This document shows, one piece after another, positions 5,381 to 22,980 of a DNA stretch of 64,000 nucleotides. The first letter of the stretch is position 1; the number at the start of each line of letters is the position of its first letter. The translations under genes were made by a program, and so were the position numbers. The notes under the pieces were generated by a model. The model had not been told where the DNA came from, did not search any database, and saw nothing but the letters and a program-made list of their open reading frames with translations. Source of the stretch: Bacillales bacterium UBA4691 (GTDB lineage Bacteria; Bacillota_I; Bacilli_A; RFN20; CAG-826); contig DHKP01000028.1 in NCBI GenBank assembly GCA_002404865.1, positions 34,809 to 98,808 of the forward strand, read 5' to 3'.

Positions 5381-6081
5381 ATGCTTCATTTAGAGATATT
5401 GGATCAAAGTAGAATTCAGCTTCTAAAGGAAATATCTTCCTTTGATTTCATTCATAACTTTTATATGGCGGGAGGCACTGCATTATCTCTACAAAAAGGA
5501 TATCGCATGTCTATGGATTTTGATTTTTTTGCCCTCATCTTTTTAACCCGGAAGTGATTATGAGCAAAGCGAAAGAAATTGATCCTTCATTTCAAGCCAT
5601 TACCGTAAGGCATGATACCTGCGATTTACTCATCAAAGGAGTTCAGGTCTCTTTCTTTTATTATCCCTATTCTCAAATGGATGAGTTTGTCATAGATAAG
5701 GAATTTCCAGGACTAAAGCTTGCTTCTATTATTGATATTGCATGTATGAAATCTATTGCAATCAGTGAGAGAGGAACAAAAAAAGATTTTTTCGATTTAT
5801 ACTGGATAATTCATGATGAAAAATTAAGCGCGAAATCCTTAGTGAAAACAATGATGACGAAGTATGGCAAAGCCAGAAATTACCCTTTTGTCGCTATGAG
5901 CCTTCAGTACTTCATAGATGCCGATGAAGAAAAGCTTCCAAATTTTTATAAACCTTGCGATTGGGAAACAATAAAGAACTTTTTCATTATTTTTCTAAAG
6001 ACTTTTCGCAAACGCTTCTTTCCAATAACGATTAACGCTACAAAATTAGACAAACCTTTTCTTTTCGTTCATGGACGCTAA
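5381..6081 (+). pseudogene. AbiEii/DUF1814-type nucleotidyltransferase toxin, frameshifted
   Basis: MLHLEILDQSRIQLLKEISS..FYMAGGTALSLQKGYRMSMDFDFF is interrupted at T7 (5524-5530). It continues in another frame as PHLFNPEVIMSKAKEI...DIACMKSIAISERGTKKDFFDLYWI. A GGAGG RBS lies upstream of the 5381 ATG. Confidence 0.65.
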
Positions 6082-13992: not shown

Positions 13993-14020
13993 TTGAAAAA
14001 CGCGGGGGGGGGGTTAAAAT
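13993..14020 (+). promoter_or_regulatory. Putative SigA-type promoter of the GH3/surface-protein operon with a G10 tract in the spacer
   Basis: TTGAAA (13993-13998), 16-nt spacer aacgcGGGGGGGGGGt, TAAAAT (14015-14020). An AAAGGA RBS and the ATG at 14053 lie downstream. Confidence 0.55.
14004..14013 (+). repeat. Homopolymeric G10 tract
   Basis: Read directly from the sequence. It is the longest G/C run I noticed in the window; the next is G6 at about 9704. Confidence 0.95.
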
Positions 14021-14052: not shown

Positions 14053-17000
14053 ATGGACAAGAAAAAAGAAAATTTGTTTACGCGAATTTATGGTCACGTT
14101 AGCAAAGGCTGGATCATAGGACGAGCTGTGAGCTGCGCTGCAATTGCCGCCTTAATCGTTGCGATAAGCGTTGGCACTTCGATTGCAAACTCCTATTCGT
14201 CTCAGCTCACTGCTTACCTTTGCCCCCCGTTAACGGATGATTCGCAAGTTTCGCAAGCCCAAGCCGCAGGTGCTGAGCTCGCGAAAAAAGTGGAGCTTGA
14301 AGGGGCGACACTACTAAAGAATGATAACAACACCCTTCCACTTTCAAAAACTGACGATAAAAAAGTCAATGTTTTCGGATTCGGATCTGTCGATTGGTCG
14401 TATGGCGGAATTGGAAACGGATGTTCTGGACAAGTGAGACCAGAAAACGATGACCCAAATTCCGTGACTGATTTAATGAAGGCTTTAAATCGATACGGCA
14501 TTCAAGCAAATAGCGAATTGCAAAATTTTTATCGTGAATGGTGTGAGCCGGTTAACCTCATTAAGGATCCAAATAACACCGATAGAAATTTTGCTGCGAC
14601 TCTTCGAGAACCTCCAATGAGCCAATACTCTAGTGAGCTATTAGAAAGAGCGAAAGAATATTCTAATGTGGCGATTGCCGTTATTTCTCGCACTTGTTTT
14701 GAAAATACCGACCTTCCTAACACTCAAAGAAAAGCTGGTCCTGGAATGAACGAGGACAATACTCGCCATTATCTAGAAATCTCAACGGAAGAAGAGGAAA
14801 TGCTTAGATATTTGGGTTCTAACTACGAGAAGGTCGTTGTTCTAATCAATGCTGGTAACATGATGGAACTTGGCTTTATGGATTCTATTCCTGGGCTTGA
14901 CGCTTGCGTTTATGTCGGCGTTACGGGAACGCAAGCCGCTGCTTCGATTCCTGCTTTACTTTGGGGTGATACTCCTTTCTCTGGGAAATTAGTGGATACC
15001 GTTCCTTATTCCTTCGACGATATGACTTCGAGCTATTCGAATTGGTTTGGCGCCGTTAGTTACGCAAACGGCGGGCAAGGTGTCGACTATGTAGAAGGAA
15101 TCTATGTAGGCTATAAATGGTTTGAAACCGCCGATAAAGAAGGTGTATGGACAAACGTTGATAATAGTGCCGCCTATGGCGAAAAGGCAAAAGGATATTA
15201 CGGGGTTGTCCAATATCCTTTCGGGTACGGCTTATCTTACACAAATTTCGATTGGAAAATCGTTAAGTCTACGCCTGAAGCTGGTGTCTCAATTGATGAA
15301 AACACAAAATTCAAGATTGATGTTGAAGTTACTAATACCGGCAATTTTGCTGGCAAAGACGTCGTAGAAGCTTACGTTACTTTGCCTTACACAAAAGGCG
15401 GGATTGAAAAATCTTATGTCTCATTAGTTGGCTATGCAAAAACCGAGCTTTTGGCGCCTGGGACCTCTCAAACGGTCACCATTGACGTCGATGCTTATGA
15501 TTTCCTCTCTTACGATTGCTATGACAAAAATAGCAATGGTTTCAAAGGTTATGAATTAGAGAGCGGCGATTATGAAATCAAACTCATGACCGATAGCCAT
15601 AACATCAAGAAAATCGGAGATGAAGATGCCGTTTTGACATTCAAAGTCGATGACACAATCAAATGCGAAACCGATAAATACACCGGTGCAACGGTGAAAA
15701 ACCTTTTCACTGGCGACGAGGCAATTGATGGATTCTCCATCGATGGGATTGAGTCCGACTACAACGCGAATATTCCGTTTATGTCAAGAAATGACTTTCA
15801 GGCTGGCTATTCTTTCCCGAAAAGGACGAATGAAGTCGCTAAAAGATCTTTATCCGATAGAGAGAATAATGCGCTTACTTATTCCGCTAATAAGGCTAAA
15901 GAATGGGATAACGCCACGACTGATGCTTTTGGAAACGAAGTGAATCAAACTAAGCCGACATGGGGCGCAAGTACTAACCTTAAGGTTGCTGAAAACGGCG
16001 TTCCTACTGAACTAGGTTTAGCATTAGGGCAAGACTATAACGACCCTAGATGGGAGGATGTGCTCAATCAAGTGAAATATAGCGAAGCCGTTTCTTTGGT
16101 TTCCAAGTCCCCATCTGGGAATAAAGCGATTGGTTCTATCGGTAAACCGAGGCTTTTAGCTTACGATTCTATGATTCAGATCAAGGGGTTTGCTGGTAAG
16201 CCAAGAGGCACTGGTAACCCATCGACAACGATTTTAGCGATGAGCTATAACAAAAACCTTGCTTATCAATATGCGACAAATTTTGCGAATGAAATGAACG
16301 CGATTGGCGTTCAAGCCGTTTTTGGCCCTGGCATCAATCTCCACCGTTCTCCCTTTGGTGGCAGAAACTTCGAATATTTCTCAGAAGACACCTATATGAC
16401 TGCCGATATGGCTCGCATCATCGTTCGCGGATTGCAGAATTATGGTTGTAGCGTAGAGATGAAGCATCTTGTTTTAAACGAACAAGAGTCTTGGCGTTAT
16501 GGGTGTGGCACTTGGCTCACGGAACAGGCGCTTAGAGAAACGTATTTGCGTCCTTTCCAAAGAGTAACCGAAGAAGAAAACCTTTCTGGGGTGATGACTG
16601 CCTTTAACCGCATTGGCTCATTGTGGGTTGGCGGAAGCACTGCTCTTATCACCGGCGTTTTAAGAAACGAATGGGGTTTTAAAGGCTATATCGATACTGA
16701 CTGGACTGAAGGTATTACTGGTACTCCTGATGAACAACTTCGCGCTGGTGGAGAAATCGGAATGGCTCAGGCTTTAGGGGAATCTATCGCTTACGATTAT
16801 GGGGAAGGGGCCGCCTCTGGTCGCTTGCAAAATCGTTTTAGAGATGCTGTCAAGCATGTTTTGTATGGCTGGCTCTCTCCAAAATATCAAGCGAGCGTTT
16901 ATAAACCGGGCGAAGGTGAGAACATCACAACGTCCTTCACCATTCAATCTTGGCAGTGGTGGCAACCATCAATCATTGCGTTAAATTGCCTTGTGTATTT

Positions 17001-17100
17001 CGGTTGCGCGATTTGGTTAGTTTGCTTATTTATGCCATCTAAAAAATACCAAAACAATGATCCGACTGAACCAAATAACGGTAAGAAGGAGAATGCATAA
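14053..17100 (+). CDS. Glycoside hydrolase family 3 beta-glycosidase, permuted domain order, with N- and C-terminal TM anchors
   Basis: An N-terminal TM (IIGRAVSCAAIAALIVAISVG) is followed by the GH3 C-domain (ATLLKNDNNTLPL, LLWGDTPFSGKLVDTVP). Next comes the FnIII-like domain (YPFGYGLSYTNFDW, VTNTGNFAGKDVVEAYV), then the GH3 N-domain (RSPFGGRNFEYFSEDTYM, KHLVLNEQE, VMTAFNRIG, GYIDTDW). A C-terminal TM (IIALNCLVYFGCAIWLVCLF) closes the protein. The start was set to the ATG with an RBS. Confidence 0.85.
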   Translation: MDKKKENLFTRIYGHVSKGWIIGRAVSCAAIAALIVAISVGTSIANSYSSQLTAYLCPPLTDDSQVSQAQAAGAELAKKVELEGATLLKNDNNTLPLSKTDDKKVNVFGFGSVDWSYGGIGNGCSGQVRPENDDPNSVTDLMKALNRYGIQANSELQNFYREWCEPVNLIKDPNNTDRNFAATLREPPMSQYSSELLERAKEYSNVAIAVISRTCFENTDLPNTQRKAGPGMNEDNTRHYLEISTEEEEMLRYLGSNYEKVVVLINAGNMMELGFMDSIPGLDACVYVGVTGTQAAASIPALLWGDTPFSGKLVDTVPYSFDDMTSSYSNWFGAVSYANGGQGVDYVEGIYVGYKWFETADKEGVWTNVDNSAAYGEKAKGYYGVVQYPFGYGLSYTNFDWKIVKSTPEAGVSIDENTKFKIDVEVTNTGNFAGKDVVEAYVTLPYTKGGIEKSYVSLVGYAKTELLAPGTSQTVTIDVDAYDFLSYDCYDKNSNGFKGYELESGDYEIKLMTDSHNIKKIGDEDAVLTFKVDDTIKCETDKYTGATVKNLFTGDEAIDGFSIDGIESDYNANIPFMSRNDFQAGYSFPKRTNEVAKRSLSDRENNALTYSANKAKEWDNATTDAFGNEVNQTKPTWGASTNLKVAENGVPTELGLALGQDYNDPRWEDVLNQVKYSEAVSLVSKSPSGNKAIGSIGKPRLLAYDSMIQIKGFAGKPRGTGNPSTTILAMSYNKNLAYQYATNFANEMNAIGVQAVFGPGINLHRSPFGGRNFEYFSEDTYMTADMARIIVRGLQNYGCSVEMKHLVLNEQESWRYGCGTWLTEQALRETYLRPFQRVTEEENLSGVMTAFNRIGSLWVGGSTALITGVLRNEWGFKGYIDTDWTEGITGTPDEQLRAGGEIGMAQALGESIAYDYGEGAASGRLQNRFRDAVKHVLYGWLSPKYQASVYKPGEGENITTSFTIQSWQWWQPSIIALNCLVYFGCAIWLVCLFMPSKKYQNNDPTEPNNGKKENA

Positions 17101-17102
17101 TT

Positions 17103-20100
17103 ATGAAAGAGAAAAATAAAAAGTTATCTTTGATCAAAGGCCTATCCATTGGCGCTTTGAGTGTTGCGTTATTGGCGACTGTTGGCACAGTCTTCAGCGT
17201 CTCTTATTCAAGCTGGCAAAGCTATTACGAAACGATGGTCAAAGAAAAAGAGCAATATGAAAAAGAACACGCTCCAGAAGTGACTACGATGAAAGGCATT
17301 TCCGTCAAAATTAAAGACGGAGTTGGCTTCTATAAAAACGGAAAGGCGAAAGCAATCAAATCGAATTTCGTGGTTGAAGGCCTATACACAATCGGTAACG
17401 AAGTCAATCAACGCGATTACACAGAAGAGCTTTCCGATTATACGATTGAAGCGCCGGAAGACTTTACGGAAAAGGGTGGAGACGTTGTCTTCCATTATCT
17501 GAAGCAAGAGGCGGAAGTCGATGAAAACGGCAATGAGAAAAAGGACGAAGAAGGTAACGTAATCCTTAAGACGGTTTATGATTTCACGGAAACCATCACG
17601 ATTGATTTGGTTGATGTGAAACCGGCCCTAGTATCTATCACTCATAATCCTTACATTGTGGCTTACGCAGAAGGAGACCGGTTTAATCGCGATGGCTTAG
17701 CCGCAGATATCATCAATAACGATGGTTCGACATATGCGGAGAACGTTTCTCTATCTTTACTATCATTCCCAACGAACCGTTTGACACTAGAAACCACAAG
17801 TGTAAAAGTCGGTTTCAAGTTTGGAGAGAGTGACGAGGATGTTGCTTATGGCGAAATCCCCGTAAAAGTGATGCCAAAAGACGAATTTACTAACGGAGAA
17901 TTAGAATCCTTCACTATTGAAGGAGACAATGTCCTTGAAGCTGGCTCTTCCTTAAATAGTTATAAGCCCTTAGTCTATGGAACCTATTCTAGCGGTAATC
18001 GGATTCTACTTTCTGAAAGCCAATATAAATTAAGCGGATTAACGGGCGATGCCGAATTTGGGAAAAATTACTTTATTACGATTGCTTCTACTGAGAACCC
18101 CAATATCATTTCCCGGGTTTCTTTGAAAACGATGAAGAATTTGTCAACTAGCGAAGCAACCGTTAGCGGCGCTACAAAATATGAAGGGTATGTCAAAGAT
18201 TTCGACAACAATGACTATATCGAATTCGCTTATAACTCTGAGAAAGAAGAAGTGGTTAAATTCATCCTTGATATGTCGAATGGTTTCTTTGAGTTTGCGA
18301 ATAACAAGTTTGTTACCAAAGGCATCGATTTCAGCGACTTCGCTTATATTTCGATTAACGGCAACATCAAAGATACTTCCTTTACCTTCTTAGGAGGGGG
18401 CGCCTTCGATTACTTATCGGATGCGTATGCTAATTATCAAAAAGTGGAATTAGGCGCCTATAGAATAAAAAAGGGAGAAAACAAAATCCGCGTTACTTTC
18501 AAAGAAAGCAACACAGGTAAAACCTCCGCTTTCGGCGAATATGTCGCAGGTGCGATTTCGAAACTCACGATCACTCCTAATTCAAGCTCGCAAGAACATT
18601 CTATTTTCGGCGAATATTTTAACGAAAACGCTAATCCGACTCTCTCCATCAGCCAAAACACAACTTGGAACAATGATTTGGCTTGGGTTTACGCTTCTAC
18701 TAGCGATGGCGAATACACTTATTTCTATTCGTGCAAACCAGGCAGTAGCAATGTTTCAATCATTAAATATGACTTGAATTCAAATCGTGTTGTAGCGAGT
18801 TCTGCTTTCTTTACTTTACTCAATGAAGACCATACGCCTTTGTTTATTAAGGATGGCTATATCTACACCACAAATAATGACGGCATGTTCTTGCGCCTAC
18901 CGATTTCATTCATTGGCTTTGGCACAGCGAAATTCGAAGTTTTGCCAAAACTTGCATTTGAAAATGTCGCCGATAATAAGAAGATAAAATCCGCCTATTT
19001 CAATCAAAGTACAAGACAATACGCTCTTCTACTTGATAGCGGCCTAAGCTATTTTGATGCGAACGGTAAGCATTTGTATGGTGCCAAATCGTTTAAAAAT
19101 GGCGTGAAGGTCACTGGTGACGATAGTTATCTTTATGTGTTTACGAATAAGAGCAATGGTGCGATTTCTCCTTCTATCCAAATTTATAATTGGGCAGGCG
19201 AACCAATAAAAACCATTAACCCAACAAACACAATCGAAACGATGGGAATAGAAAAAGAGAAGAAAGGCAGCACAAATGTCCAATCCATTGTTGCCATGAA
19301 CGGAAACCTATATTTCACGATGGTTCGTTGGTCGGGTGGCAACAATTCAAGCGTATACAAAATTACGGCTGCCGGTGAAAGCGGGGCGTCTGAATCAGTA
19401 GAACGCTTGGGCTTATACGAATATATCTCTTCTTGCACCCAAAAAGACGTTTCCCCAAAATTCAATTCTTCCCTTTTCTCCGATAAAGTGGTGCAAAGCC
19501 AAATGGATATGTACGCTCATGGCATTTGCTCGGACGAAGAAAATCTCTACATTACGACAAATGTTGTATCAGGAGATACTGTAGTGAAAAAATTTAGCCT
19601 CGCTACAGGCGAATACTTGGGCAAAACGGCATCATTCAAAAGAAAAGAAATATGGGCGAATTCCGATTACCTTATGTACAAAGATGGCTATGTCTACGTA
19701 TTCTCTGATGATGGCGTTAGACGTGTCAACGCTAGTGATATCACTGTCGATAACGCGCCTTCTTTTGAAACAAACGCCCTTACGATTGAAGGTATCGATG
19801 GGGCAAAAGCAGGCGCCTACAATGCAACCGTCAACAAGATGGCGATTATGGCAAACGGCAAGCTCAATATTATTGGTGGCAAATCGCTAAAGGTCGAGAA
19901 ATCCGTTTCTGCTTCAAGCGGCTTAGGAATGGCTAGCGACGCGAATTATATTTACGTCTTCTTTGAGGAGAAGGCGGTGGGTGTGACTGCAAAATTCTCC
20001 GTTTATGATTGGTCCGGGAATTTGATTAAGGCAAATCAAGAAATCAAAGGCATCTCTAGTGAAGTCATAACAGCAAGCAACAATGTTCAAGGAATGGCCA

Positions 20101-20192
20101 TGGTTAATGGCGAATGCTATTTCATGGTCAGCCGTTGGGATGTTAAGAGCCAAATCGCAAAAGTTACTTTCGACACATCTATTCTTGGCTAA
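17103..20192 (+). CDS. Large TM-anchored surface protein: Ig-like repeats, a CBM-like region and a duplicated beta-rich C-terminal module; function unknown
   Basis: 1029 aa with an N-terminal signal-anchor LSIGALSVALLATVGTVFSV. Starts 2 nt after the GH3 stop and has an AAGGAG RBS. Carries recurrent xYxYVF/YFTMVRW strand motifs. Confidence 0.8.
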   Translation: MKEKNKKLSLIKGLSIGALSVALLATVGTVFSVSYSSWQSYYETMVKEKEQYEKEHAPEVTTMKGISVKIKDGVGFYKNGKAKAIKSNFVVEGLYTIGNEVNQRDYTEELSDYTIEAPEDFTEKGGDVVFHYLKQEAEVDENGNEKKDEEGNVILKTVYDFTETITIDLVDVKPALVSITHNPYIVAYAEGDRFNRDGLAADIINNDGSTYAENVSLSLLSFPTNRLTLETTSVKVGFKFGESDEDVAYGEIPVKVMPKDEFTNGELESFTIEGDNVLEAGSSLNSYKPLVYGTYSSGNRILLSESQYKLSGLTGDAEFGKNYFITIASTENPNIISRVSLKTMKNLSTSEATVSGATKYEGYVKDFDNNDYIEFAYNSEKEEVVKFILDMSNGFFEFANNKFVTKGIDFSDFAYISINGNIKDTSFTFLGGGAFDYLSDAYANYQKVELGAYRIKKGENKIRVTFKESNTGKTSAFGEYVAGAISKLTITPNSSSQEHSIFGEYFNENANPTLSISQNTTWNNDLAWVYASTSDGEYTYFYSCKPGSSNVSIIKYDLNSNRVVASSAFFTLLNEDHTPLFIKDGYIYTTNNDGMFLRLPISFIGFGTAKFEVLPKLAFENVADNKKIKSAYFNQSTRQYALLLDSGLSYFDANGKHLYGAKSFKNGVKVTGDDSYLYVFTNKSNGAISPSIQIYNWAGEPIKTINPTNTIETMGIEKEKKGSTNVQSIVAMNGNLYFTMVRWSGGNNSSVYKITAAGESGASESVERLGLYEYISSCTQKDVSPKFNSSLFSDKVVQSQMDMYAHGICSDEENLYITTNVVSGDTVVKKFSLATGEYLGKTASFKRKEIWANSDYLMYKDGYVYVFSDDGVRRVNASDITVDNAPSFETNALTIEGIDGAKAGAYNATVNKMAIMANGKLNIIGGKSLKVEKSVSASSGLGMASDANYIYVFFEEKAVGVTAKFSVYDWSGNLIKANQEIKGISSEVITASNNVQGMAMVNGECYFMVSRWDVKSQIAKVTFDTSILG

Positions 20193-20205
20193 TAAGCCAT
20201 AAACA

Positions 20206-20246
20206 AAAGGTTGCTAATGACATTTTGCTTCTTAGCAACCTTTTTC
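20206..20246 (+). terminator. Rho-independent terminator of the GH3 operon
   Basis: AAAGGTTGCTAA ... TTAGCAACCTTT (12-bp arms) followed by TTTCT. Confidence 0.8.
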
Positions 20247-20391: not shown

Positions 20392-22980
20392 CTATATCTT
20401 TGCTTTATATCCAACGTCTTCAATTGCTTTGATGAGCTTTTCGTTTGGAATGCCTTTGCTTAAATCAACAATCGCTTGTTTGTCTTTTAGCGATACGCTT
20501 GCGTTAACGACCCCATCAACGCTTTCTAATGCACTTTTTACGTGACTCACGCAGTGCTCGCACATCATTCCTTCAATAGTGATTTCAACTTTCATGTTTT
20601 TATTCTCCTTATCAATGCTATTCATTATTATTGGGCATGCCTCATTCGTTAAAAACGAGGGCAATGGCTTTGGATTTTTCTTGCGGTCTCTATCTTTATA
20701 TGGATTAAACAAATTTAATCGCAAGGCATTTAAAACAACCGTGACGCTAGATAAGCTCATCGCGGCAGCGCCCATCCAAGGACGTAACTTCGCTAAGCCA
20801 AACGCTGAGAATACGCCTGCGGCGATAGGGATCATAATTAAGTTATAAATAAACGCCCAGAAAAGATTCTCTTTTATATTATGGTACGTGGCTTTTGAAA
20901 TCCGAATTGCCGCAACGGCGTCCATTAAGCTGGATTTCATTAAGACGATATCGCTAGAATCGATAGCAATGTCGCTTCCTGCTCCGATGGCGATACCAAC
21001 ATCCGCCTCTGTTAAAGAAACCGCATCGTTAATGCCGTCTCCTATCATCGCGACTTTGCCGTTTTCTTTAAGGCGCTTTATTACGTTTTGCTTATCTATT
21101 GGTAAACAAGAAGCGATAACGCCTTTAATGCCGACTTCCATAGCGATGGAACGCGCGGTTATTTCGTTATCCCCTGTTAGCATAACCGGAGTAATTCCCA
21201 TTTCCATAAATTCTTTGATGGCAATTTTGGAATCTTCTTTGATGACGTCGCTGACGGCAATCACACCAAGGAAATGCTTGTTTTTTGCAAATAATAGAGG
21301 GGTTTTTCCTTCTAGCGACAAATTATCAATCATTGCTTGCTCTTTTACGCCGATAATTCCTTTTTCCTTAAAAAAGAGCGGAGATCCAGCAAGATATTCA
21401 TCATTTCCGATAGAAGCGAGTAATCCGCTTCCAGGTAAGTTTTGAAAGGCATTCGTTTTTAATAAAGCGATGTTTCTTTCTTTCGCTTCTTCCTTGACGG
21501 CGATAGCGAGAGGATGAGAAGAATTCGCTTCAATGGAGGCGGCGATTTGCAAGAGATCGAACTCGATAACTTGACTAGGAATGATATTGGTTACTTTTGG
21601 TTTCCCTTGCGTGATGGTCCCTGTTTTATCCAAAACGACGAAATCGATTTTACCCGCTTCTTCTAGAGCCCGTGCGTTTTTGAATAAGATCCCTTTTCTT
21701 GCCGCTAAGCCGTTTCCAACCATAATTGCGACTGGTGTAGCAAGCCCTAAAGCACATGGGCAAGAGATAACAAGGATTGAAATCGCTCTTTCTAGGGAAT
21801 AAGAAAGAAGCGTTACCTCATCCAATGAGCTTACGAAATTTTGCCCAAAAATCATCCAGAAAATGAAAGTGATCAAAGAGACTAACAAAACGATTGGGAC
21901 GAATATTCCTGCAATTTTGTCAGTAATCTCGGATATCTTTGTTTTTGTGCCGCTAGAAGCTTCTACCATCTTAATGATTTGGCTTAATGTTGTCTCTTCT
22001 CCTACGCGCGTTGCTTCGCAGATGAGTGCTCCGTTTTGGTTGATGGTCGCGGTACTTACTTTATCGCCTATTTTTTTATCTACTGGCAAAGATTCCCCTG
22101 TTAGAGGCGATTCGTCAACTGCGCTTTCGCCCTTTTTGATCGTTCCGTCTACTGGAATGCTTTCCCCAGGTTTCACTAAGAAAAGGTCGCCAACTTTTAA
22201 AGAACTTGCTAAAACAGTTTTTTCTTCATCATCGATCAATAGATGCGCTTCTTTTGGCGCTAAATCGAGCAGGCCTTTTAAGGCGCTTGTGGTTTTGCCT
22301 TTGCTATAGGATTCAAGCGTTTTTCCAATCGTAATTAAGGCTGGAACCATACCGCTTGTTTCAAAAGAGAGGTTCATCGCATCCCTCATTAAAGAATTCA
22401 TATTCATGCTTAGGGCATCTCTACCCATCAAGTAGAGCATCGCAACGCTATAAATCCAAGCGATCCCTGAGCCTAGCATCACAAGCGTATCCATATTTGG
22501 AGAACGACGGTATAGCGCTTTTGATCCAGATAAGAAGAATTCATGATTAATGAGCATAATCGCTAAAGACAAAAGCATCTCGGTTAAGCCTAGATAGATT
22601 GGATTGTCATTAAAAACGCCTAATGGCCAGCTTAACATATATCCCGTCCCTAAATAAAATAGAGGAACGAGTAAAATGAATGAGGCGATTAGTCGTTTTG
22701 CTAGCAGCGGCGTTTCTTTATCGAGAAAGCGATCATCTTCGATTGATGTTTTTTCCTCTTTCCTATTTGCTAGGGTAGCCTTATACCCGGCTTTTTGAAT
22801 CGCTTCGATGATTAAAGAAGGGGTAGCAGGGCCTTTGTAGCTAACTAACATTGAGTTCATAAGAAGATTCACGGAGACGTCAGTGACGCCTTTTACGCTT
22901 TTGGCGGCCCTTTCTACTGCGTTAGCGCAACTAGCGCAGCTCATTCCGCTAATATCGTATTTCTCGTTTTCCATAATCAT
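20392..22980 (-). CDS. copA: Copper-translocating P1B-type ATPase with N-terminal and C-terminal HMA domains
   Basis: Motifs GMSCASC, CPC, DKTGTIT, TGDN and GDGINDA, plus a C-terminal [18 protein letters not shown] domain. The ATG overlaps the csoR stop (ATGA). Confidence 0.95.

Follow-up and report, generated by a model that had tools for sequence, protein, structure and literature searches.

The gene at positions 17103-20192 (forward strand) of the window, the 64-kb stretch of DNA that was analyzed here as a whole, encodes a protein of 1029 aa, as read from its open reading frame, and directly follows a gene for a GH3 exo-β-glycosidase. What could a protein that yields nothing in direct sequence searches of its full length against Pfam, NCBIfam and PDB contribute to the work of such an enzyme, and is the association of the two genes a general feature or a peculiarity of one genome? 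Elsewhere in the window, no paralog of either gene was found; a nearly identical copy of the target (99.9% identity) is present in assembly GCA_002438995.1.

A bicistronic operon with a polymorphic promoter tract

The GH3 gene and the target gene form one bicistronic operon that is closed by a strong terminator. The stop codon of the GH3 gene (TAA, 17098-17100) is followed by the target start after 2 nt, and the Shine-Dalgarno sequence of the target (AAGGAG, 17086-17091, forward strand), recognized by direct reading of the sequence, is located within the 3′ end of the GH3 coding sequence, 11 nt before the ATG. Downstream of the target, an intrinsic terminator (20205-20245, forward strand) consists of a 13-bp stem, a 14-nt loop and a U-run; its computed fold has a free energy of -20.2 kcal/mol (z = -4.8), and none of 200 shuffled sequences folds equally well. 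No comparable structure was detected by RNA folding at the junction of the two genes. The 2-nt gap, the lack of a terminator at the junction and the single terminator after both genes together indicate co-transcription, as the sequence-only reading of this locus had proposed; the extent of the open reading frame, its distance from the GH3 stop codon and its own AAGGAG were likewise described correctly in that reading. No Rfam elements were found in the window.

Upstream of the operon lies a promoter-like element (13993-14020, forward strand) with a -35 box TTGAAA (13993-13998), a 16-nt spacer and a -10 box TAAAAT (14015-14020), which matches the consensus in 10 of 12 positions in a consensus scan. 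Its core, CTTGAAAAACGC-G(n)-TTAAAAT, is retained in the sister species despite diverged flanks. The spacer contains a G10 homopolymer (14004-14013, forward strand), the sole G/C run of at least 8 bases in the 64-kb window and a candidate for a phase or “volume” switch that works by strand slippage. Across eight assemblies of the same species, the tract has the length G9 (two assemblies), G10 (five) or G11 (one), with identical flanks. This variation between assemblies suggests phase-variable expression of the GH3 operon, such that the tract may tune or switch the expression of the enzyme and the target; if the polymorphism is real, the operon would exemplify how carbohydrate utilization can be governed by a contingency locus.

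The GH3 partner enzyme

The upstream gene (14053-17100, forward strand) encodes a permuted-topology GH3 exo-β-glycosidase of 1015 aa, counted from a conserved ATG that is backed by gene calls in other assemblies. The earlier assignment to GH3 agrees with its Pfam matches, which occur in the order GH3_C (106-374), Fn3-like (456-534) and GH3_N (711-906). This is the order of the permuted GH3 subfamily, in which an (α/β)6 sandwich is followed by an FnIII domain and an (α/β)8 barrel, and the nearest solved structures, 5wug and 5k6l (GlyA1), are permuted GH3s whose C-terminal half contains the barrel. When the window enzyme is aligned to 5k6l, its “DTDW” motif stands opposite “MTDW” (D709) and “CFENTD” opposite “AGEDKD” (E143), that is, opposite the nucleophile Asp D709 and the acid/base Glu E143 of GlyA1 (PMC5104943). 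Judged from its sequence, the enzyme has intact catalytic residues and looks active and extracellular. The closest characterized permuted GH3s, from gut and rumen microbes, with which this subfamily is associated, take short cello-, xylo- and laminari-oligosaccharides as their substrates (PMC5104943, PMC11233000).

The window enzyme shares the domain order and the catalytic Asp and Glu with GlyA1 and BrGH3A but differs from them in several respects. It contains hydrophobic segments at both ends (aa 38-68 and 992-1017 in the numbering of a 1035-aa open reading frame), and such anchors were present at both termini in each of the nine full-length homologs tested; furthermore, the window enzyme and its homologs are always accompanied by a partner gene. 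The platform residue Trp-711 of GlyA1 is replaced by Thr, and the anchored state contrasts with the intracellular role that was proposed for BrGH3A by its authors.

Conservation of the gene pair and diversity of the partner family

The target is not the orphan that it had been taken for. Close relatives fall into 53 clusters with 26-100% identity, and an exhaustive profile search retrieved 1,954 representatives that share at least one module with the target, 176 of them at E ≤ 1e-30, including dozens of full-length relatives. All these proteins are unnamed and nearly devoid of Pfam matches; in distant relatives with other architectures, the fused domains gave no Pfam match except Big_3. No homology to a characterized non-glycan protein family turned up.

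Conservation of the gene pair in relatives, which had been suggested as a check, is complete within the loci that could be counted: wherever the flank of a relative locus extended to the neighboring gene, divergent paralogs and other architectures included, a permuted GH3 gene adjoins the target-family gene; close and divergent loci together account for 13 of 13 such cases. The pairing holds down to 26% identity and across differing architectures, and the intergenic distances, determined for nine loci, range from -4 to +12 nt. GH3 is also found beside a propeller-less relative (L014), with the architecture R1-R2-R3-CBM-CBM, and beside propeller-only relatives (L015, L026 and L028), some relatives being secreted propeller-only proteins that lack the stalk and yet are linked to GH3. 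Among the GH3-linked stalked proteins, R1-R2-R3 stays constant whereas the heads vary, with 0-5 copies of the CBM-like module and 1-4 copies of the propeller on the same stalk.

No sugar transporter or regulator is kept beside the gene pair, and its neighbors in the window are housekeeping genes. In some genomes, a small open reading frame of about 50 aa and a secreted propeller protein accompany GH3 and its partner; no homolog of the small open reading frame was found upstream of the GH3 gene of the window. The source MAGs bear the names of human-gut genome catalogs (UMGS, HGM). Literature searches found no published description of the partner family or of pairs that involve an anchored permuted GH3.

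Membrane anchor and stalk

The N-terminus of the target fits a signal-anchor (aa 8-35 by hydropathy; 17124-17207, forward strand), as noted earlier, given that the single N-terminal hydrophobic segment lies within a helix predicted by AF2 (aa 9-55), with the helical stalk running onward to about aa 55, and that a lipobox is absent; the segment is kept in homologs. The anchor is followed by three β-domains in the AF2 model, R1 (aa 59-172; 17277-17618), R2 (aa 173-258; 17619-17876) and R3 (aa 259-346; 17877-18140), all on the forward strand. The sequence-only reading described these as three Ig-like repeats. The count of three domains stands, but repeats in sequence they are not: R1-R3 show no mutual similarity (hhalign probability below 1%), and only the middle domain, which contains the motif quoted in that reading, can be placed in a family, namely Big_3, through its relatives.

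R2 is, on profile evidence, a divergent relative of Big_3. Its family profile matches 4fdw/4fd0 at 1e-6, and PF07523 (Big_3) is matched by 8 of 12 homologous stalks (best 6e-12), with the window's own R2 missing E 0.1; the region also matches giant Big_3-repeat proteins. R3 has no significant match in Pfam or PDB, and its consensus contains a Big_3-like “Y-S-S-G-N” motif. R1, the membrane-proximal domain, gives no match in Pfam or PDB and belongs to no known family; no other part of the target is as conserved, R1 having a mean identity of 67% (A1) that follows the GH3 identity across loci at a level about 4 points lower on average.

A CBM35-like module

The stalk leads into a divergent, putative β-sandwich module that resembles CBM6/CBM35 (aa 347-492; 18141-18578, forward strand), which AF2 predicts to be an all-β domain with pLDDT of about 85-94. 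Its assignment as a divergent CBM35-like module is supported at the profile level, in line with the earlier remark that this region resembles a carbohydrate-binding module: the family profile A3 matches the solved CBM35 modules 3zm8 (PaMan26A-CBM35; 1.6e-6, the best match), 5x7g (8e-5), 2w1w/2w47 (2w1w at 2e-4) and 2vzp (CsxA-CBM35; 1e-3), with the similarity falling mainly on the N-terminal third of the module. In many relatives, this unit of about 145 aa, all-β and variable in copy number, starts with the motif “EAE(N/D)A...G...F”. Unlike these CBM35 modules, the CBM35-like module of the target is not appended to an enzyme but resides on a separate protein, and the copy in the window has diverged too far for a Pfam match; PF16990 is touched by 2 of 20 relatives, with a best E of 0.036. 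The profile built from the full alignment of the target retrieves from PDB just a weak CBM35 match (E 1.5).

Two five-bladed propellers of an unclassified sequence family

The C-terminal half of about 500 aa, which had been predicted to be β-rich and is all-β in the AF2 model, consists, according to the models and sequence comparisons, of two homologous five-bladed β-propellers of an unclassified sequence family, C1 (aa 497-765; 18591-19397) and C2 (aa 766-1029; 19398-20189), both on the forward strand. The homology of the two modules is clear from hhalign (probability 100%, E 3e-41) and blastp (1e-14). Given that a fold search with the full-length model was uninformative, returning only generic tandem WD40/DDB1-type propellers at TM below 0.2, C2 was modeled alone (pLDDT 92.5, pTM 0.91), which gave 20 strands in five blades and an N-terminal closing strand (residues 22-26) that completes the last blade. 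The suggestion of a possibly undescribed fold is thus replaced by a known fold that occurs twice; only the sequence family is unclassified. Together with R1 and R3, the propellers have no family in Pfam or NCBIfam.

In PDB, the fold of C2 is matched best by two five-bladed glutaminyl cyclases, 3nol and 3mbr (TMq 0.57-0.58, TMt 0.63-0.64), at 10-12% identity and an rmsd of 5-6 Å; the fold resembles glutaminyl cyclase and generic WD40/YncE-type propellers equally. Affiliation with the glutaminyl cyclase family was dismissed, there being no Pfam match at E ≤ 0.1 and no NCBIfam match, and tandem extracellular propellers beside a glycosidase are unlike a cyclase. Matches of a broad propeller profile to designed WD40 proteins (E 1e-12) were discounted as sums of many sub-threshold matches of single blades.

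The best BFVD matches of C2 are phage neck-appendage, tail-spike and tail-fiber proteins (TMq 0.55-0.59). The receptor-binding platforms of staphylococcal phages are five-bladed and recognize GlcNAc on wall teichoic acid (PMC4901313, PMC6795507), and for one of them, phi11 Gp45, the reported best PDB match is 3NOL, the same as for the target propeller (PMC4901313). Phi11 Gp45, the P68 tail fiber and PF21311 share with the C2 model the five four-stranded blades and the N-terminal closing strand (PMC6795507). Weak signals of this kind recur at the sequence level (6iac at E 2.8e-4; PF21311 in 2 of 26 modules, E 0.0024), yet hhalign of the propeller against the P68 tail fiber gives a probability of 32% over 44 columns, i.e., one blade, and tblastn of the propeller against phage genomes produced no match. 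Membership in the phage platform family was therefore rejected, the signals from two profiles, Pfam, hhalign and tblastn being confined to the level of a blade, and an analogy of fold class was kept. In contrast to the phage platform, the target module is cellular, occurs in tandem and is encoded in a monomer rather than in a trimeric tail fiber.

A putative glycan-capture partner of the GH3 enzyme

The reading that we prefer, to which we assign a probability of about 0.5, is that the target is a non-catalytic surface glycan-capture partner of GH3. The binding of glycans is inferred from how the protein is built, from its genomic context, from the varying copy number of its modules and from a likeness in fold to the receptor-binding propellers of phages. 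The target would be a type II membrane-anchored surface protein working with the upstream enzyme, which itself appears to be held in the membrane at both termini. The helical stalk and the three Ig-like domains would raise off the membrane a glycan-recognition head made of one CBM35-like module and two tandem five-bladed propellers; the head could capture β-linked oligo- or polysaccharides, or keep the cell attached to them, and in this way provide more local substrate for GH3. R1 may contact the enzyme. The variable copy numbers, 0-5 for the CBM-like module and 1-4 for the propeller, are what one commonly sees in binding modules, whose avidity grows with repetition, and not in catalytic domains. 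Divergence grows from R1 through R2/R3 and then the CBM-like module to the propellers, as expected for an outward-facing ligand-binding head. Weighing against this reading are the distance of the window's CBM-like sequence from Pfam, the equal likeness of the propeller to an enzyme and to generic propellers, the restriction of the phage signals to single blades and the lack of a conserved sugar transporter or regulator beside the gene pair. The earlier proposal of a substrate-capture or adhesin partner finds partial support in the surface-anchored multi-modular build, with its CBM35-like module, and in the conserved GH3 pairing; the orphan status and the new fold that went with it do not hold.

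The strongest competitor, possible but rather unlikely, makes the protein an adhesin first, with a propeller/CBM head that attaches to host mucus, to the glycans of host cells or to other microbial surfaces, trimming by GH3 being secondary. Gram-positive adhesins typically combine an anchor, a stalk and a head with Ig domains of the Big_3 type, the poly-G tract of the promoter shows a polymorphism like that of phase-variable surface antigens, the source MAGs are named after human-gut catalogs, and the propeller resembles, at the level of the fold, the receptor-binding platforms and tail fibers of phages (PMC4901313). That the head diverges rapidly could just as well result from pressure that the immune system or phages exert on an adhesin. 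However, the strict coupling to GH3 suits nutrient capture better, considering that characterized relatives of the enzyme act on dietary β-gluco- and xylo-oligosaccharides (PMC5104943); moreover, the two readings overlap, both involving glycan binding and differing only in the target that is bound.

An improbable alternative holds that the propellers are themselves catalytic, a new endo-glycanase, lyase, esterase or cyclase-like enzyme that makes oligosaccharides to be finished by the exo-acting GH3. Five-bladed propellers house the active sites of GH32, GH43, GH62 and GH68, endo/exo gene pairs are common, the best fold in PDB is that of an enzyme, glutaminyl cyclase (TM 0.57-0.64), and several blades of the propeller consensus have polar residues (D/N/Q) ahead of their inner strands. 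Yet the searches of Pfam, NCBIfam and PDB sequences revealed no match to any enzyme family, in agreement with the earlier failure to recognize a catalytic motif, and the top 50 fold matches contain no GH43- or GH32-type structure. In a comparison of 26 diverse propeller modules, there is no invariant column, the lone nearly invariant residue being a glycine, which argues against a conserved active site, and 1-4 tandem copies would be unusual for a catalytic domain. A place among the GH32, GH43, GH62 and GH68 propellers was discarded on the same grounds, none of these families appearing in the Pfam and PDB sequence searches or in the top 50 folds.

It is also quite unlikely that R1-R3 dock, organize or protect GH3 at the membrane, or make up a coat on the cell surface, with propellers that serve as protein-protein platforms rather than lectins: the conservation of R1 and its tracking of GH3 identity, the membrane tethering of both proteins, the constancy of the stalk under variable heads and the frequent role of generic propellers as protein-interaction hubs would all fit, but a CBM35-like module is hard to account for in a pure scaffold, and the stalk-less secreted propeller-only proteins are linked to GH3 too.

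Relation to known systems and wider implications

That glycosidases can have surface binding proteins as partners is well known. The closest functional analogs of the glycan-capture partner proposed here are the surface glycan-binding proteins (SGBPs, SusE/F-like) from polysaccharide utilization loci of Bacteroidota, which likewise are non-catalytic, surface-tethered, multi-domain, β-rich and glycosidase-adjacent, with binding modules that vary by locus. The likeness is one of functional analogy only: the target belongs to Bacilli, is held by an N-terminal transmembrane anchor and comes without a SusC/D pair, a lipoprotein signal or an outer membrane, and its domains (the Big_3-like stalk, the CBM35-like module and the five-bladed propellers) are unrelated to those of the SGBPs. 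Assignment to a Sus-like SGBP system was rejected on account of the housekeeping neighbors, the transmembrane anchor and the missing lipobox.

More tentatively, GH3 and its partner, along with the secreted propeller protein and the open reading frame of about 50 aa present in some genomes, might constitute a previously undescribed, possibly phase-variable, membrane-tethered glycan-harvesting module of uncultured gut Bacilli, in which a new five-bladed propeller lectin family, of the same fold class as the phage platforms, provides recognition and R1 docks the doubly anchored GH3. If this is true, the module would be a monoderm counterpart of the surface “utilisome” of Bacteroidota. Such a system would be of value for its new parts and its new lineage, not for a new principle, and no change of paradigm is involved. 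Uncultured gut Bacilli, which include MAGs labeled “Mollicutes”, are common in gut metagenomes, and little is known about their acquisition of carbohydrates; the doubly anchored GH3 and its modular partner make up a unit of two proteins whose proposed role in capturing glycans at the cell surface can be tested. The propeller family would join the candidate lectins and CBMs, and the gut- and rumen-specific permuted GH3 subfamily, whose enzymes have until now been studied on their own, would gain a dedicated partner.

The operon

The gene for the 1029-aa surface protein (17103-20192, + strand; hereafter the partner) begins 2 nt after the stop codon of a GH3 gene (TAA, 17098-17100) and has its own Shine-Dalgarno sequence (AAGGAG, 17086-17091, + strand), in agreement with the sequence-only reading. 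RNA folding detects no significant hairpin at the junction of the two genes and a strong one directly 3' of the partner stop codon, a terminator at 20205-20245 (+ strand; 13-bp stem, -20.2 kcal/mol, z = -4.8) that is followed by a U-run. Because the flanking genes are, in addition, divergent upstream (3-hydroxyacyl-CoA dehydrogenase) and convergent downstream (copper ATPase), the GH3 and partner genes make up a two-gene operon. The terminator stem sits between an A-run and a U-run (AAAAGG...CCUUUU) and therefore could act in both directions, serving also the copper ATPase gene, which ends at 20392. That ATPase is split into two genes (487 and 367 aa) in the same-species assembly GCA_002436625.1 (L025, 5101-7694) and is a single 862-aa gene elsewhere. 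No Rfam family passed its gathering threshold in any part of the 64-kb window, and no tRNA, rRNA or riboswitch was called.

The GH3 enzyme

The GH3 gene (14053-17100, + strand) probably starts at the ATG at 14053, which is preceded by AAAGGA and yields a 1015-aa product, as given by gene callers in four other assemblies. The protein shows the permuted domain order GH3_C (106-374), Fn3-like (456-534) and GH3_N (711-906), and among solved structures it is closest to 5wug and 5k6l (GlyA1), both permuted GH3s. Alignment with GlyA1 shows that both the nucleophile, Asp-709 ('MTDW' vs 'DTDW'), and the acid/base, Glu-143 ('AGEDKD' vs 'CFENTD'), are kept. The permuted topology of GlyA1 has been linked to gut and rumen microbes (PMC5104943), and another such enzyme, BrGH3A, prefers laminaribiose (PMC11233000); no NCBIfam equivalog cut-off was reached by the window GH3. 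Hydrophobic segments are located near both termini (aa 38-68 and 992-1017 of the 1035-aa ORF) and are present at both ends of all nine full-length homologues (L003, L005, L006, L008-L013), implying, at the level of sequence, that the enzyme is membrane-tethered by its two ends. We did not find such double anchoring described for characterised permuted GH3s. In GCA_002438995.1 (L001, 4899-7998), gene calling splits the GH3 into two overlapping genes of 378 and 672 aa, apparently through a frameshift near locus position 6000, and the gene is intact in the window and four other assemblies; in that MAG, the split probably reflects misassembly or a pseudogene.

Domain architecture of the partner

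Domain boundaries were derived from an AlphaFold model built from 17 homologues (mean pLDDT 83) together with domain HMMs. The sole hydrophobic segment (aa 8-35) lies within a helix (9-55) and is not accompanied by a lipobox, which fits the N-terminal signal-anchor of the sequence-only reading, here continuing into a helical stalk. Three all-beta domains follow, R1 (aa 59-172), R2 (173-258) and R3 (259-346), where three Ig-like repeats had been proposed; the all-beta nature of the domains stands, but no repeat relation is detectable in pairwise comparison (hhalign probability below 1%). A stalk profile reaches about 1e-6 against the 4fdw and 4fd0 Ig domain, and PF07523 is matched by 8 of 12 homologous stalks (best 6e-12); by these profile matches R2, which contains the motif quoted for the supposed repeats, appears to be a divergent Big_3 Ig-like domain, and R1 and R3 have no match among known domains. 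The next module (aa 347-492) is too divergent for Pfam in the partner itself; a profile of 20 diverse copies matches the solved CBM35 modules 3zm8 (1.6e-6), 5x7g (8e-5), 2w1w and 2w47 (both 2e-4) and 2vzp (1e-3), which upholds the suggested resemblance to a carbohydrate-binding module at the superfamily level.

The remainder of the protein consists of two homologous modules, C1 (about aa 497-765) and C2 (about aa 766-1029; hhalign probability 100%, E = 3e-41; blastp 1e-14). A fold search with the full-length model returned only generic tandem propellers (TM below 0.2), and C2 was therefore modelled alone, from an alignment pooling both copies. It folds autonomously (pLDDT 92.5, pTM 0.91) into 20 strands forming five four-stranded blades, the last of which is completed by the N-terminal strand. 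Among PDB folds, C2 comes closest to two five-bladed bacterial glutaminyl cyclases, 3nol and 3mbr (TMq 0.57-0.58, TMt 0.63-0.64, identity 10-12%), followed by YncE, WD40, BtuG-type and Bacteroides surface-layer propellers; in BFVD, phage neck-appendage, tail-spike and tail-fibre proteins rank highest (TMq 0.55-0.59). By sequence profile, a weak match to the P68 tail fibre (6iac) also recurs (E = 0.0065 with the first profile, 2.8e-4 with a broader one), and 2 of 26 propeller modules touch PF21311, 'Phage 5-bladed beta propeller receptor binding platform'. In phage P68, the platform propeller likewise has five blades and is closed as C2 is (PMC6795507), and 3NOL is the best structural neighbour of both C2 and the phi11 Gp45 propeller, the proposed holder of wall teichoic acid GlcNAc (PMC4901313). 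Nevertheless, hhalign aligns a single blade with the P68 protein (probability 32%), and tblastn against 50,697 phage genomes found nothing, so that membership in PF21311 was rejected, as was membership in the glutaminyl cyclase family; the propeller is accordingly an unclassified family of a fold class common to phage platforms and cyclases.

Relatives and gene pairing

The partner had been regarded as an orphan, which it is not: a word-indexed search yields 53 clusters at 26-100% identity, with unnamed members of about 1030-1080 aa each that carry no Pfam domains, and an exhaustive profile search yields 1,954 representatives (E<=1e-3), of which 176 reach E<=1e-30, many of the weaker matches being giant Big_3-repeat proteins that share one domain only. 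The protein is also present, exact or near-identical, in GCA_002438995.1 and about ten other assemblies. In a species-level genome scan, close relatives were found in seven uncultured MAGs whose taxonomic labels disagree with one another (Bacillales/Caryophanales bacterium UBA6865, Bacilli bacterium, 'uncultured Mollicutes' UMGS1395 and UMGS1248, 'uncultured Firmicutes', 'Christensenella sp. UBA4636' and 'Clostridia bacterium HGM11422'). Among 200 relatives, the R1-R2-R3 stalk is constant, and the numbers of CBM-like and propeller modules vary from 0 to 5 and from 1 to 4, respectively.

Co-occurrence of the gene pair was the check proposed with the sequence-only reading: tblastn with the window GH3 places a permuted GH3 immediately upstream of the partner homologue in 13 of 13 loci (L001-L013), including the 26%-identity paralogues L002, L012 and L013. 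Where the gap was measured, at nine loci, it is -4 to +12 nt. At L014, the GH3 is followed by a propeller-less R1-R2-R3-CBM-CBM protein. Nothing else around the pair is conserved. Two genomes, UMGS1395 (L007, L012) and SRR5519172-bin.28 (L008, L013), each hold two divergent pairs, suggesting that the pair was duplicated as a whole and specialised; relative to the window protein, the partners in these genomes show 50% and 26% identity.

Several loci, such as L003, carry a cassette of a ~50-aa ORF, a propeller protein with a signal peptide, the GH3 and the anchored partner; in the window, the GH3 and partner genes are present and both the small ORF and the propeller-only gene are missing. Propeller-only genes (L003 1900-4742; L015 39-3863; L026 1570-4451; L027 648-4999; L028 4699-7952) encode 2-4 C modules, with an N-terminal signal peptide in the L003 example, and each is preceded by a 45-52 aa ORF with the common motif 'E-[VL]-x-I-F...[VI]-I-x-T-S'. 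A permuted GH3 follows wherever the contig continues, as in L015, L026 and L028; at L027, the fourth such locus examined, the contig ends before any downstream gene.

Divergence and proposed function

Across ten loci, identity to the window drops with distance from the membrane, lying below that of the GH3 by 4 percentage points for R1, 9-10 for R2 and R3, 13 for the CBM and 17-20 for the propellers. Along window 17277-20189, divergence is least in R1, whose identity follows that of the GH3, and climbs steadily towards the distal propellers. The constant proximal domain R1 may contact the GH3, and the distal modules, fast-evolving and variable in copy number, behave like a ligand-facing head. 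Under the best-supported reading, with a probability of about one half, the partner would be a non-catalytic, surface-anchored glycan-capture protein serving the membrane-tethered, exo-acting GH3; beyond architecture, context and fold, we infer its steps. A host- or cell-directed adhesin, which overlaps with glycan capture in what the head would do, is considerably less probable. It is improbable that the propellers are catalytic: their fold is shared with cyclases, but GH32- and GH43-type enzymes are absent from their matches, no enzyme family is matched by sequence, and no column is invariant across the 26 diverse modules. A scaffold or docking role is equally improbable.

Modular surface binding proteins partnered with a glycosidase are a known kind of system, and literature searches returned no description of the partner family. 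New are the unclassified sequence families to which R1, R3 and the propeller belong, the fact that every informative locus couples the protein to a permuted GH3 with two anchors, the presence of this system in Bacilli of the gut that are uncultured, and an operon promoter that may be phase-variable.

The poly-G tract

Upstream of the GH3 gene, the promoter-like element TTGAAA-N16-TAAAAT (13993-14020) contains in its spacer a G10 tract (14004-14013); no other G/C run in the window reaches 8 bases. The tract was compared in the window and in L001, L005, L017-L020, L023 and L024; of eight same-species assemblies with identical flanks, two carry G9, five G10 and one G11. Spacers of 15, 16 and 17 nt would alter promoter strength, and the layout is that of classic slipped-strand contingency loci for surface proteins, making the tract a candidate phase-variable promoter; homopolymer assembly error is the alternative explanation of the length differences. 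The sister species has the same promoter core, with G10.
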